From Candidatus Omnitrophota bacterium (GTDB lineage: Bacteria; Omnitrophota; Gorgyraeia; DTHP01): a DNA stretch of 64,000 nt. The stretch spans positions 22,566 to 86,565 of the forward strand of contig JAMWCW010000005.1 of assembly GCA_023819145.1 (NCBI GenBank), read 5' to 3'. The notes below the pieces were generated by a model. It was not told the DNA's origin and made no database searches. It saw only the letters and a list, made by a program, of their open reading frames with translations. Positions 33,710 through 38,944 of the stretch are shown piece by piece. The stretch's first letter is position 1, and every line of letters starts with the position of its first letter. A program made the translations under genes and the position numbers.

Positions 33710-34170
33710 AAGGGCGATTCGGAGTAAGTATAAAAGGCGGAGAAAATTCTTCTCCGCCTTTTGTTTTGAGGATAATCTTTAAGTTTAATCCCCTATAAGC
33801 TGTAGCTAACCTTACTTAAGTAATTTATCTTCAGAGTCTTAAGTAAGATACCCTCTCAAAAGTTTACACCCTGAACCAAAAGTATACACTTTTAAGCAAG
33901 CGGTATCTCACCCTGTTTCCTATTCCAGCCGTCCTGAGTAAGAAACCCTTTCTTGGCCTCACCGTAGTAATCCGAACCGAGGATAAAGTTTATTCCTATC
34001 TCAGGAAAGCACACACTTTGTAATTTTTTAGATGTTCACTTAATAACTTCTTTTCCCCATTGGAAACCACCACATATCTAATATATGATTATATAGCCTC
34101 GCAGATTTCACACACTAAATAAGGGGCAATGTCAACAAAAAACTTTTATAAAGAAAAAAATAATTCCCCC

Positions 34171-34199
34171 TTGACAATTTAGGAAAAGTATGCTATAAT
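34171..34199 (+). promoter_or_regulatory. Consensus sigma70 promoter TTGACA-N17-TGcTATAAT (extended -10)
   Basis: TTGACA 34171-34176, 17-bp spacer, TATAAT 34194-34199 preceded by TGc; ~130 nt upstream of the 34332 ORF. Confidence 0.6.
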
Positions 34200-34331
34200 T
34201 AGTTTGGAAGTTTTAAAAAGGGAGCCGGCCTAAAGTAATTCCGGTGCAAGGTAGCCGGGGTATTATACGGTTATCCCGGCGAAGGAGATAGATGTGCAGA
34301 GAAACAAGTTTAACCAAAAAGAAGGTGTAAG

Positions 34332-35894
34332 ATGAAGAAGTTATTAATGGTTACAATTTTACTAGCAGGGTTGGCGAATTTAAGTAGCTTAACTTTGATT
34401 AGAATAACAGATGCTTATTTTCCTCCTCTTGGAGGAAAATTAGGTCAAATTCCTCTCTTGGGAAACGATCCCCCTGAATTACCGTTGATGGTACCAACTT
34501 CTTCTCAGGATACTACACATTTACCAGAACCCTCAGTTTCCGAAAATGAGAGGATTTTTTATTGGAAACGAACTTATTTGACTATAGGTGGATATGGTGT
34601 TGAAAATATAGGATTTTATACTGAAATTTTGCCAATTTTTTATGAAATAATATATTCACAAGAAAATTCTGAGAGATGTATATCCTTACTACCTGTTTTG
34701 TCTCGGGTATTGCCTCTGTCAATGAGCTTAATGATTGACACAGTCAATGAGGTTGTGGCACTTGTGCACATATTAAAGGTAGTTGCAGAAAACACTGCAA
34801 ATGATAAGGAGGCTTGTGAAGTTTTTAACGAAGCTTGGAGAAACATAGATTTACATGATATTGATATGTTAGGGAGTATGGATAGATATATTTCAAGTAA
34901 ATTTAGGACAGAATCCTCACCATCTATTCCTCCCTATATTGAAACAGCCTTGGTCTGGATTTTGAAAGGAGCTTTTGCAGAAGAATATAGAAGAGATATG
35001 GATGCAGAAGATTGCTATCAATATGCGATTGCTTGGCTTAAGCGTGGATTGGGCTTAGATATTGGTAACATAGGTTCTGAAGAAGAACAGCAAAAACTCG
35101 AAGAATATTTCTCAAATGATACAAACCTAGACTTAATGGGGAAGATTTATGGGATTATGCTTGCAACTGCTTACAAAAATTTAGCTCGTTGTTATTTTTC
35201 CGTTTGTTCAAAAAATAAGGAAACCTTAGAAAAATCATTACAGATAGCAAAAAGTGCTAAAGTAATATTGGAGGCAAGTAAGGGAAAGATTTTCTTTACG
35301 AACTCGGCAGTATATTTTAATATAGCTCAAATATATAATAATCTCTGGACCTTAGCAGAGACTGAAGAAGAAAGACAATATTACTTAGAAAATGCTACAG
35401 ATTATTATTTAAGAAGTTTGGAATCTTTGAGATTCAAATTAGATGAGTACGTTGACTTATTCTGGTATCATTTTTGCCGTAACGACTTATTAGTCTCTGC
35501 CTATTTTACTCTTGGAGAAAAGTTTAAGGAAAGAATATTAATGGCAATTGCAAACAGTATGAGATTAGAGAAAAATGGGAGATATATGGAAATAAATAGC
35601 GAAGTATTTTCCGTCTTAATTAAAAATCCTAAAATATTCAAAGATCTTTTAGATTCTCCTTATATTAATAACGATCTTTTAGTAATGAGAAGTAGTTATA
35701 GTGGTGTTGGATTTGCTTCTAGTGATAATTGGCTACAATTGTTGAAAGCTCTTTTTAAAAGCGATGTTTTCCCTACTGAAGAAGTTGCTATAGAGTGGGC
35801 AAGCAATAATCCCTATATACAATTTTTGGTGGGAAGATATAAAAAGATATTTTCTGATACTTCATATTTTGTAAAGGCTCTGAGGTCTTTCTAG
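34332..35894 (+). CDS. Hypothetical secreted protein (signal peptide, helical/TPR-like C-terminal region)
   Basis: 520 aa, N-terminal signal-like MKKLLMVTILLAGLANLSS; no recognisable catalytic motif; lower GC than flanking genes. Confidence 0.55.
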   Translation: MKKLLMVTILLAGLANLSSLTLIRITDAYFPPLGGKLGQIPLLGNDPPELPLMVPTSSQDTTHLPEPSVSENERIFYWKRTYLTIGGYGVENIGFYTEILPIFYEIIYSQENSERCISLLPVLSRVLPLSMSLMIDTVNEVVALVHILKVVAENTANDKEACEVFNEAWRNIDLHDIDMLGSMDRYISSKFRTESSPSIPPYIETALVWILKGAFAEEYRRDMDAEDCYQYAIAWLKRGLGLDIGNIGSEEEQQKLEEYFSNDTNLDLMGKIYGIMLATAYKNLARCYFSVCSKNKETLEKSLQIAKSAKVILEASKGKIFFTNSAVYFNIAQIYNNLWTLAETEEERQYYLENATDYYLRSLESLRFKLDEYVDLFWYHFCRNDLLVSAYFTLGEKFKERILMAIANSMRLEKNGRYMEINSEVFSVLIKNPKIFKDLLDSPYINNDLLVMRSSYSGVGFASSDNWLQLLKALFKSDVFPTEEVAIEWASNNPYIQFLVGRYKKIFSDTSYFVKALRSF

Positions 35895-36087
35895 AAAATA
35901 AAAATAAAATAGTGTGTATAAAAGTTATTCTTCGCGAATTAACTAAAAGATTTTAAAAGTTTGATAATAAGGAAAACAATCGGAATAACAATAGTAAGAG
36001 TAAGGGTGGTTTTTATTATAAATTTTATTTGGCACGGCCAGGAAGAGAGGATATTTAAAATTTAATTAATAAATAAAGGAGGAAGAG

Positions 36088-37275: not shown

Positions 37276-37589
37276 AGTGCTAAAACAGGTTTAATTCAAG
37301 TGGTTCCTACAAGTAAACTTTTGTTTCTAATCGGAAACGGAAATTGCTCAAGGAATATCTTGTCTAATATCTTTATTAGTAGTAACTTACACACCTTCCG
37401 TCTCTAAAGAAACTGATATGTAAAATAATTTTACTCTTCGGGAACGCGCATCTCTCTCCTTAATTGTGTCTTTTAGCACCTCTATAGCATAAGTATCTGT
37501 AATTACTGGAGTTAAATCTTAGACAAAACCTGTTTATTTCTCTAAATTTCTGGCACAATTCTTGCTAAAGAATAAAATAGAAGCACACC

Positions 37590-37618
37590 TTGACAAAAAG
37601 AGAAATATGTGGTATAAT
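37590..37618 (+). promoter_or_regulatory. Second consensus sigma70 promoter TTGACA-N17-TGgTATAAT (extended -10)
   Basis: TTGACA 37590-37595, 17-bp spacer, TATAAT 37613-37618 preceded by TGg; ~65 nt upstream of the 37682 ORF. Confidence 0.6.
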
Positions 37619-37681
37619 TTATATAAAAAGAAAAAGGAAAACGACTTAAATAAGGTATAAATATATTTATTTTTTTGTCCA

Positions 37682-38752
37682 ATGATTAAAGAGTTTAAAA
37701 AAGTTGTTAGGAAATTGCGAGAACCTAAAAGCCTAAGCTGGCTTATAGTTGTTATTTTATTAGCGATAATAACCAATCCCGTATTAGCCCAAGATTGGCC
37801 ATTTGGACCAAGTTTCTTAGATATTGTGCCTGTGAGTCCGATAAACCAATATATAGGATATAAAATTGTTTCAGGTATGGGTGAGGAATTTACAGCAAAA
37901 TATTTAACTAATCTAGCAGAAACTTATCCGGGTAGAGTATACATAAAACCATACAGAGGTCCATATGAAGGAGAAACAGTAGAGGTTTTACCGGAATATA
38001 AGCCTTACGGAGATATGGATATCCGTTGGAAATTAGCCCACCCGTGGCCGTGGATTTGGGGTGACTATTATGTAAAAATACGAAGAGTTAATGGTGAAGA
38101 GGATTGGTGTAATGTTAATAAAGACTGGGACAAGGTTATTTGGGTTCCTCGGACATTTGAACAAAGTAAAACAACCATAAGTAATTTATCCCATAATCCT
38201 GATATGCCTCATACCTTTGAAGAAAGAGGGATGAGACGCCCCCCAAAAGTTTCTGAGTTACCAAAACTCTATCTAGAAGCTGCTTCGGTTCGAGCTTTTT
38301 GGGCAAATGGTCGGGGTCTTACTGATAGAAAACTTGAGTTAATTTGGGAAGAGGCACAGAAGACAGCTATTTATAAAAAGGGTAGCTATCCTTTTGGAGA
38401 AGAAGATAAAATAGGAGACCTTGGGTTTAAAATTGATCCTTTTATTCTATTAGCGATCCTCGGAGCAGAAGGAACTGGTTCATTTGATACTAATAATAGC
38501 CTGCCGGACGATGATTTTATAAGAGATTTAGCCAAAGCAGGTAATCTTTTGAGGCAGTTAATCAAAGCTTGGATAGATAATGGTAAACCAGGTGATTGGT
38601 TACATTGGGTTTGGCGGGGAAACGCGGGTTCGAAATTTATAGGAGGATATGCGGAGGGGGAAGAGTGGTATAGAAATGTAAGATCCATGTACGACTATAG
38701 GCTTCAATACAATGAGGACGAATTAAGACGATTGATGGCAGATAGACGTTAA
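37682..38752 (+). CDS. Hypothetical secreted protein (Trp-rich)
   Basis: 356 aa, signal peptide ending ...NPVLAQD; W-rich mature region; no recognisable domain. Confidence 0.55.
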   Translation: MIKEFKKVVRKLREPKSLSWLIVVILLAIITNPVLAQDWPFGPSFLDIVPVSPINQYIGYKIVSGMGEEFTAKYLTNLAETYPGRVYIKPYRGPYEGETVEVLPEYKPYGDMDIRWKLAHPWPWIWGDYYVKIRRVNGEEDWCNVNKDWDKVIWVPRTFEQSKTTISNLSHNPDMPHTFEERGMRRPPKVSELPKLYLEAASVRAFWANGRGLTDRKLELIWEEAQKTAIYKKGSYPFGEEDKIGDLGFKIDPFILLAILGAEGTGSFDTNNSLPDDDFIRDLAKAGNLLRQLIKAWIDNGKPGDWLHWVWRGNAGSKFIGGYAEGEEWYRNVRSMYDYRLQYNEDELRRLMADRR

Positions 38753-38944
38753 GTATTTATAGGATTTGATAGCCATCTTCGATTTTATAAAATAATCATT
38801 TTACTAAGAAATCAAAATAAAAAGTCATTTTTTAGTTTAGAGAAAAATAAATTCTCAACCCTTTTTTATCTTTTCCTTGCCATCTTTAACTCAATTCTGC
38901 TACAATAAAATATTTAATAATTAAACCCCCACATTTTTAAAGCC

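Follow-up and report, generated by a model that had tools for sequence, protein, structure and literature searches.

A strain-variable gene pair encoding a putative exported CheD/NTAN1-fold amidohydrolase beside a separately conserved gene upstream of mutS in a Candidatus Omnitrophota genome

Enzymes of the CheD type are cytoplasmic, consist of a single domain and are encoded together with che genes. In CheD, the catalytic triad is formed by Cys27, His44 and Thr21 (PMC7022378). The eukaryotic cytosolic N-degron enzyme NTAN1 (PDB 6A0E, PF14736) follows the same triad logic (Cys, His and Ser or Thr), and its specificity relies on an appended C-terminal region (PMC7022378). CNF1, BLF1 and XopAK/HopK1-C combine a fold of the same superfamily and cysteine-hydrolase chemistry with targets beyond the cytoplasm of the producer, and such toxins rely for delivery on dedicated translocation domains or on a type III system. 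Here, a gene whose product has this fold (g2) was analysed together with its neighbours g1 and g3 in a stretch of 64,000 nucleotides (the window) of a Candidatus Omnitrophota genome (GCA_023819145.1, contig JAMWCW010000005.1, positions 22,566 to 86,565 of the forward strand). As a preliminary description of this DNA had reported, the three open reading frames (ORFs) lie between a decayed ATPase and mutS, and both their coordinates and the decay of the ATPase were confirmed. The genes and the two promoters in front of them were the following:

34332-35894, + strand: g1, ORF of 520 amino acids (aa)
36088-37275, + strand: g2, ORF of 395 aa
37682-38752, + strand: g3, ORF of 356 aa
34171-34199, + strand: promoter 1, TTGACA-N17-TATAAT with a TATGc (TRTGn) extended −10 and an A-rich tract upstream of the −35
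37590-37618, + strand: promoter 2, TTGACA-N17-TATAAT with a TGTGg extended −10 and an A-rich tract upstream of the −35

The preferred account, to which a probability of roughly 0.6 was given, is that of two independent units within a strain-variable zone, a strain-specific exported unit made up of g1 and g2 and a separate, conserved g3. According to it, the stretch from tRNA-Asp to g3 and mutS would be a plasticity zone that gains and loses DNA. The first unit (~33900-37305) would be strain-specific and transcribed as a whole from a sigma-70 promoter of the extended −10 consensus type; in it, g1 would encode an exported ORFan and g2 an enzyme, likewise exported, in which a new N-terminal domain (N-domain) is fused to a cysteine amidohydrolase of the CheD/NTAN1 type. 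This enzyme would work outside the cytoplasm, most likely converting the side-chain amide of Gln or Asn in a protein or peptide to the acid, with Cys263 as the nucleophile, His280 as the base and Thr257 orienting the histidine, and would be unrelated to chemoreceptor maturation. The second unit would be g3, with its own conserved consensus promoter just upstream of mutS and no relation to g1-g2.

The evidence for two units comes in the first place from L001, a 6.2-kb contig of a metagenome-assembled genome (MAG) of a sister (GCA_023818815.1), which is 98.4% identical to the window. Its blastn alignment comprised the window positions 27474-28287, 33662-33869 and 37311-42448, and two blocks were skipped, the junctions of which were read base by base:

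28288-33661: block A, missing from L001; an IS1595 element, a sensor kinase with its regulator, and the greater part of the decayed T2SSE-type ATPase
~33900-37305 (approximate ends): block B, missing from L001; promoter 1, g1 and g2

L001 retains g3, promoter 2 and mutS, and g3 and MutS each share a cluster at ≥90% identity with a partner from this second MAG. The sequence shared to the left of the variable region ends at 28287, just past tRNA-Asp, which bears out the earlier view that an accessory region begins at tRNA-Val/tRNA-Asp. Furthermore, an imperfect direct repeat of ~21 nt, CC.TA.AGGG.AC.TTCCGACG, flanks the 5.4 kb of block A (28267-28287 and 33665-33684), and L001 has one hybrid copy of it. 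In place of the 3.4 kb of block B, L001 has ~42 nt, 20 of which match nowhere in the window; this replacement speaks for a true strain difference in block B and against a collapse during assembly, yet the evidence, drawn from one short contig of a MAG, is weak. Moreover, g1-g2 are likewise missing upstream of g3 in a more distant genome (L005). That the absence in the sister is an assembly artefact, and/or that g1 is spurious or non-functional, leaving just three poorly conserved hypothetical MAG genes, was judged very unlikely: the shortness of L001 and its two apparent deletions relative to the window would fit an artefact, whereas the agreement of L005 and the junctions, which carry unique or diverged sequence, including the 20-nt insert, in place of clean repeat-mediated joins, argue against it.

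In the same comparisons, g3 appeared as a separate gene. It is located directly upstream of mutS in three genomes (the window, L001 and L017) and probably in a fourth (L005), where the DNA downstream of g3 matches the mutS promoter region and the upstream genes are unlike anything in the window. The g3 homologue of L005 is 71% identical and has a perfect promoter as in the window, while that of L017, immediately upstream of mutS, is 45-52% identical. The core of promoter 2, CTTGACAAA...GAAATATGTGnTATAATT, is kept upstream of the g3 homologues in L001 and L005 (74% DNA identity), with unalignable flanks. The ratio of nonsynonymous to synonymous substitution rates (dN/dS) of g3 against L005 was 0.15, with saturated dS, and points to purifying selection. 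Altogether, g3 would be a clade-specific core gene that behaves as vertically inherited and is under selection for a strong promoter.

These results bear on the reading put forward in the preliminary description, in which the three genes form one horizontally acquired, strongly expressed cassette for a secreted effector, toxin or surface module at tRNA-Val/tRNA-Asp. The comparison with sister genomes, which had been proposed there as a check, divided this reading, as g1-g2 proved strain-specific and g3 proved conserved. A strain-variable unit was supported for g1-g2, which are absent from the sister, whereas for g3 recent acquisition is already contradicted by the presence of the gene and its promoter in the sister, by the synteny with mutS down to 45% protein identity and by the low dN/dS. 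As a single cassette, this reading was considered very unlikely, although the lowest GC contents at third codon positions (GC3) in the window, a tRNA-adjacent variable region with an insertion sequence (IS) element, perfect promoters together with export signals, and a deamidase fold common to the toxins CNF1 and BLF1 speak in its favour. Besides the conservation of g3, it is opposed by the separate promoters of g1-g2 and g3, by the lack of an integrase and of phage or plasmid relatives, and by block A, which is closer to the tRNAs and has a GC content (0.397) above the average. With regard to the features of tRNA-linked islands, adjacency to a tRNA and absence from a 98%-identical relative were found for blocks A and B, though not for g3, and neither an integrase nor att direct repeats were found. 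The IS1595-family transposase was the sole mobility gene in the variable region. Searches for plasmid relatives of g2 and for phage relatives of g1, g2 or g3 returned none, and a mobile-element origin of block B was rejected for lack of such relatives and of bounding repeats.

The two promoters both match the sigma-70 extended −10 consensus, each upstream of a gene, and they are as rare as had been claimed, since a perfect TTGACA-N17-TATAAT is expected 0.02 times per window under a dinucleotide-preserving shuffle, and the number of three was reached in 0 of 100 shuffles. The TG extension was present in only two of the six window sites scoring at least 11/12, namely promoters 1 and 2. A third perfect TTGACA-N17-TATAAT (3062-3090), without TG, is found inside the yidC coding sequence, ~710 nt ahead of the next gene. 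Judging from promoter sequence alone, g1-g2 and g3 may be highly expressed. For g2, no promoter of its own scored above 9/12 and the gap between g1 and g2 contains no terminator, so that the two genes are probably co-transcribed as a single unit, an operon structure that is inferred.

The AT-richness attributed to the three genes held in part. For 50 window ORFs, GC3 averaged 0.352 (sd 0.049). The value was 0.263 for g1 and 0.247 for g2, the two lowest of the set, and 0.286 for g3, a near-lowest one. However, the total GC of g3 (0.387) is average, the codon-usage distance of the genes was unremarkable, and the end of the window (55-64 kb) is as AT-rich as the three-gene region. The AT-richness is real but modest, and resides chiefly in the third codon position. 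Moreover, the GC3 of the g3 homologue is below that of its neighbours in L005 and not in L017, for which reason a low GC3 is no proof of recent transfer here. 

Signal peptides were called by a home-made heuristic based on hydropathy, charge and an AXA site. In agreement with the export signals noted earlier, the N-termini of g1, g2 and g3 all begin with an n-region of positive charge, continue with a hydrophobic core and offer a small-x-small site. Cleavage is predicted at SLA|QE for g2 (around residue 25) and at VLA|QD for g3 (residue 36), and is less clear for g1. The basic N-terminus of g3 is followed by a hydrophobic segment of 22 residues, long enough that it could be an uncleaved anchor instead of a signal peptide.

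The product of g2 consists of the predicted signal peptide (~aa 1-25), a low-confidence linker up to ~75, the N-domain (~aa 80-215, nt 36325-36732), made of a five-strand sheet and helices, and a catalytic domain resembling CheD and NTAN1 (~aa 235-365, nt 36790-37182), in which T257, C263 and H280 are located; a strong Shine-Dalgarno (SD) sequence, AAGGAGG, precedes the gene. An AlphaFold2 (AF2) model built on eight family members had a predicted local distance difference test score (pLDDT) of ~90 for aa 80-365. When this model was submitted to Foldseek, a search that the preliminary description had proposed after structure prediction, matches were obtained to CheD (E 7e-9, TM-score 0.71 on the target), human NTAN1 (8e-9), YfiH/PgeF (~1e-3) and, weakly, CNF1, whereas the same steps yielded a poor model and no match for g3. 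The N-domain, common to four relatives, had no significant structural match. At the sequence level, PDB CheD 2f9z was recovered with E 1.5e-5 from the single sequence and 5.5e-14 from the family profile, and NTAN1 with 9.5e-4. C263, the sole cysteine of g2, and H280 are invariant in all eight family members, and T257 is Thr in seven and Ser in one. By fold and triad, g2 is inferred to be a Cys-His-Thr amidohydrolase (deamidase). Because of the signal peptide and the extra domain, its job would differ from that of CheD and be extracytoplasmic, the most likely predicted function being that of an extracytoplasmic Gln/Asn deamidase.

Compared with CheD of Thermotoga maritima (PDB 2F9Z, PF03975), g2 shows the same alpha-beta-beta sandwich and an identical Thr-Cys-His order, T257/C263/H280 being aligned to Thr21/Cys27/His44 (T. 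maritima numbering), so that the catalytic triad of CheD is present. Both also have in common the motif G-x-G-x-C-V-x-V...H near the triad, a G-G pair and a closing TGE. In contrast, g2 scored 22.7 bits in Pfam (gathering score 25) and 37.4 bits with CheD_Thtga (NCBIfam cut-off 240), below both family thresholds, and its 3e-9 against the NCBIfam CheD models is far under the equivalog cut-offs. Moreover, it is only ~22% identical to CheD, is 395 aa long, adds a predicted signal peptide and an N-domain of ~135 residues, and differs from a cytoplasmic, single-domain protein encoded with che genes. No cheC, methyl-accepting chemotaxis protein or other che gene was found among the scanned ORFs of the 64-kb window or in the contexts of the g2 homologues. 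The structural match to NTAN1 was as good as that to CheD; PF14736 matches four of the eight family members, g2 itself having no match at E ≤ 1. Furthermore, after its catalytic domain g2 has only ~30 low-confidence residues, where NTAN1 has its C-terminal region.

The alpha-beta-beta sandwich and the Cys-His pair of the CNF1/YfiH-like superfamily were recognized in g2 by the AF2 model and Foldseek. CNF1 and CNFy were among the structural matches (CNF1 weak, E 0.14-0.4), and the XopAK/HopK1-C model (NF041406) matched the Cys/His segment with E 7.7e-4 and 19 bits, far from its cut-off of 150. Unlike these toxins, g2 presents only a Sec-type signal and no linked delivery system. The best viral structural matches were CheD-like proteins of Mimiviridae (E 8.5e-13, 34% identity over 177 columns), such as Fadolivirus A0A7D3V927 and the 'CheD chemotaxis protein' of Moumouvirus, which are stand-alone and outside chemotaxis, as g2, but belong to giant viruses of eukaryotes, measure ~250-300 aa and lack the N-domain (TM-score on query 0.33). 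Stand-alone CheD-like proteins appeared in Fadolivirus, Moumouvirus, Tupanvirus and ChoanoV1 among the BFVD matches to the g2 model, and such proteins exceed T. maritima CheD in identity to the catalytic domain of g2 (34% vs. 22%). By any curated threshold, g2 is outside CheD, NTAN1 and XopAK, and what appears new here is an exported two-domain variant inside a known enzyme superfamily.

Searches of Pfam, NCBIfam, PHROG, PADLOC and PDB sequences gave no match for g1 or g3 and only CheD-like models for g2, which agrees with the earlier observation that no known family is represented apart from the CheD-like C-terminus of g2. The g2 family itself is extremely rare and its distribution across phyla is patchy: a search of 5.8 billion clusters gave eight proteins, the 185,579 species genomes contained a single locus, in an Elusimicrobia MAG, and the contigs of the Joint Genome Institute (JGI) added two. 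In the contexts examined, each member stands alone between housekeeping genes; che genes were absent, and no neighbour recurred. According to the heuristic, Sec-type signals are present in g2, the Ca. Kaelpia aquatica homologue P0007 and the Elusimicrobia homologue, and a Tat-like RRGFLGLL in P0012. In two unrelated metagenomic genomes, the GC3 of the homologue was far lower than that of its housekeeping neighbours, being 0.38 vs. 0.58-0.59 in L006 (8001-9470) and 0.19 vs. 0.34-0.39 in L009 (4981-6288), which suggests repeated horizontal arrival of the family. No perfect promoter was found upstream of the Kaelpia homologue. Elsewhere, a contig of Kaelpia aquatica (L002) has a perfect TTGACA-N17-TATAAT (7124-7152) ~50 nt ahead of a gene that is truncated where the contig stops; the predicted protein starts with the hydrophobic MLLLALLSQL.

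The candidate target of g2 could, speculatively, be a component of a host or prey cell or the cell's own envelope. The main rival of the preferred account takes the second course, with g2 as a housekeeping periplasmic enzyme acting on its own envelope (e.g. in peptidoglycan stem peptide de-amidation or surface-protein maturation) and g1 and g3 as structural envelope proteins. In a diderm, a Sec or Tat signal is evidence of export to the periplasm only, YfiH/PgeF, an editor of peptidoglycan precursors, has the fold of g2, housekeeping genes surround the g2 homologues, and the promoter and synteny of g3 are conserved as would be expected for a core envelope protein. This rival was nevertheless held to be rather unlikely, since a 98%-identical strain does without g1 and g2, the rarity and patchiness of the g2 family are unlike a housekeeping function, and the YfiH match is weak (E ~1e-3) next to those of CheD and NTAN1 (~1e-8).

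On the other hand, a mostly host-dependent, predatory or parasitic way of life as nanobacteria has been inferred for Omnitrophota (PMC10066038), and because of this proposed lifestyle together with the strain-variability and rarity of g2, an action of g2 on another organism is tempting. In its fullest form, which is speculative and rather doubtful as a whole, g1-g2 would be a recently gained effector operon of a host-dependent nanobacterium, g2 would found a new class of Sec/Tat-exported deamidases of the CheD/NTAN1 fold, its N-domain would direct it to an envelope or periplasmic protein of the host or prey that is inactivated by Gln/Asn deamidation, and g1 would be a lineage-specific helper or a second effector, while the family would move horizontally between bacteria that are ultra-small or symbiotic (Omnitrophota, Elusimicrobia) and be kin to the CheD-like proteins of giant viruses. 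The effector or toxin module proposed in the preliminary description was not supported, as it rests on a signal peptide and a deamidase fold. No secretion machinery is linked to the three genes, the only nearby secretion ATPase being a pseudogene.

Several points weigh against the preferred account and its extension to an effector. The effector reading is unproven, as the genes have no linked delivery system and a diderm protein with a Sec signal is taken only as far as the periplasm. The sister evidence is one 6.2-kb MAG contig, and metagenome assembly may collapse or mis-join strain variants. The comparison with L001 does not distinguish a gain here from a loss in the sister; for block A a deletion in the sister is suggested, because L001 keeps the last ~16 codons of the ATPase. 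Moreover, block B is not bounded by inverted or direct repeats and has neither an integrase nor an att site or mobility gene associated with it. The export of g1, g2 and g3 is predicted from their N-terminal sequences, the heuristic being its sole basis, and five of nine g2-family proteins have no N-terminal signal, so that either export is not family-wide or start codons are miscalled. Furthermore, g1 could be a young or decaying gene, and the role of g3 is a guess, its four-sequence AF2 model being poor (pLDDT 54) with no significant PDB fold match.

With respect to g1, the N-terminal signal-like segment is followed by a Pro-rich linker and an apparently helical remainder. The gene has an SD-like GAAGGTG upstream and a leader of ~125 nt from promoter 1; this leader contains a 9-bp hairpin (34254-34280), but its overall fold did not reach significance (z = −0.74). 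No homologue was found in 5.8 billion clusters (word index) or in 1.84 billion representatives (full HMMER), and no relative in the above libraries, the set named PHROGs included, or by tblastn against phages; g1 also lacks internal repeats and a paralogue in the window. This double failure to find a homologue would suit the alternative of a spurious gene mentioned above, but g1 maintains an open frame in 33% GC DNA with GC1 > GC2 > GC3, and by our own estimate from base composition a 520-codon frame would arise by chance with a probability of ~1e-19. Because of the length of the frame, its GC gradient, the SD, the consensus promoter and the signal-like N-terminus, g1 was treated as a real gene, a strict ORFan that would be very young or very fast-evolving. 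The idea that g1 stands in a conserved partner or immunity relation to the g2 family was rejected, as it has no similarity to the large neighbours of the g2 homologues. In the Elusimicrobia MAG L014 (4028-5593, minus strand), a signal-peptide protein of 521 aa is encoded divergently adjacent to a short signal-peptide CheD-like gene; its length is like that of g1, with no detectable similarity to it.

Regarding g3, the protein is Trp-rich (16 W); a single Cys, within WCNVNKDW, is invariant, as is a Glu within LAILxxEGTGSF. Within the poor overall model, a beta-rich N-domain (~47-156, locally pLDDT 67-84) and a helical C-domain were outlined. A lysozyme or lytic-transglycosylase idea, prompted by the motif DPF(I/L)xLAIL(G/A)xEGTGSF, was unsupported and is not claimed: the C-terminal half had no Pfam match even at E ≤ 10, the family profile matched no PDB sequence, and no fold match was significant. 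No further relatives of g3 were found in JGI metagenome contigs. Because of the conserved consensus promoter and the purifying selection, g3 is probably an abundant envelope or exported protein. Downstream of it, mutS has its own weaker promoter:

38877-41590, + strand: mutS (38945-41590) with its promoter, TTGCCA-N18-TACAAT with TG at 38877-38906; conserved right flank

This promoter-like site recurs, together with the DNA around it, in L017 (~657-686), although g3 is only ~45-52% identical there. No terminator was detected between g3 and mutS, and read-through from the g3 promoter into mutS-mutL is possible.

The rest of the window places these genes in their setting. It opens with dnaA (293-1624, minus strand) and yidC, which together span 293-3762, followed by aminoacyl-tRNA synthetases, a V/A-type ATPase operon (~20.9-27.9 kb), tRNA-Val/tRNA-Asp (27964-28237), the studied region and mutS-mutL. 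The GC skew is positive across the whole window and the + strand carries most genes; from this skew and the position of dnaA/yidC, the locus is placed ~34 kb from the likely replication origin, on the leading strand. The remaining features of the variable region were the following:

27964-28237, + strand: tRNA-Val(TAC) and tRNA-Asp(GTC) (ARAGORN and Rfam)
28312-29156, transposase 28418-29101 on the minus strand: IS1595-family element (Pfam DDE_Tnp_IS1595 7e-17), with 34-nt terminal inverted repeats
29334-31924: CHASE4/PAS histidine kinase, in block A
31925-32347: response regulator, in block A
33736-33767, + strand: terminator-like hairpin GGCGGAGAA-AATTC-TTCTCCGCC with a run of T behind it, downstream of what is left of the ATPase, read from the sequence

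The IS1595-family element directly adjoins tRNA-Asp on its 3' side, and an overlapping + strand ORF of 289 aa, without a Pfam match, is probably spurious. The CHASE4-domain ORF (29334-29726) runs into the beginning of the ORF for the PAS/HisKA/HATPase kinase (29693-31924), so that a frameshift may have divided a single sensor kinase. As to the T2SSE-type ATPase, it is a pseudogene with pieces in several frames (32766-33709) and an internal deletion, and its fragment at 33263-33709 (Pfam T2SSE 3e-22) is the left neighbour of the three ORFs, mutS being the right one. The terminator-like hairpin is kept in L001. At the gathering threshold, Rfam gave nothing but tRNAs, with no known RNA element in the g1 leader or elsewhere in 33700-38950; the small RNA candidates at E ≤ 5 were weak and were dismissed as noise from the terminator hairpin. 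In the databases, the three proteins exactly match NCBI MCM8783888-90, all 'hypothetical protein' of a Candidatus Omnitrophota MAG and encoded on a 115-kb contig, and the gene downstream of them is annotated as MutS. Finally, Omnitrophota are known for large unannotated ORFs, and at 56598-64000 on the minus strand two large ORFs (1606 aa, and 570+ aa running past the window end), of low GC and without a Pfam domain, flank a radical-SAM gene.

Overall, the region is a useful lead and not a proven effector cassette. Neither a low GC3 nor a strong promoter is enough to delimit an island, and only the comparison with sister genomes split the acquired part from the conserved one. Hypothetical exported MAG proteins of the g1 and g3 type are common; the strain-level presence or absence and the conserved perfect promoter make the genes of this region good leads and no surprise; g3 is a separate lead, as a clade-specific envelope protein without a recognisable fold that is, to judge by its promoter, apparently highly expressed. 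Should g2 prove to be a deamidase that is exported, the branch of CNF1/YfiH-like hydrolases to which CheD and NTAN1 belong would reach into the extracytoplasmic space, beyond its cytoplasmic roles in signalling and the N-degron pathway, and g2 would be a concrete candidate effector for the uncultured and apparently host-dependent Omnitrophota, differing between near-identical strains.

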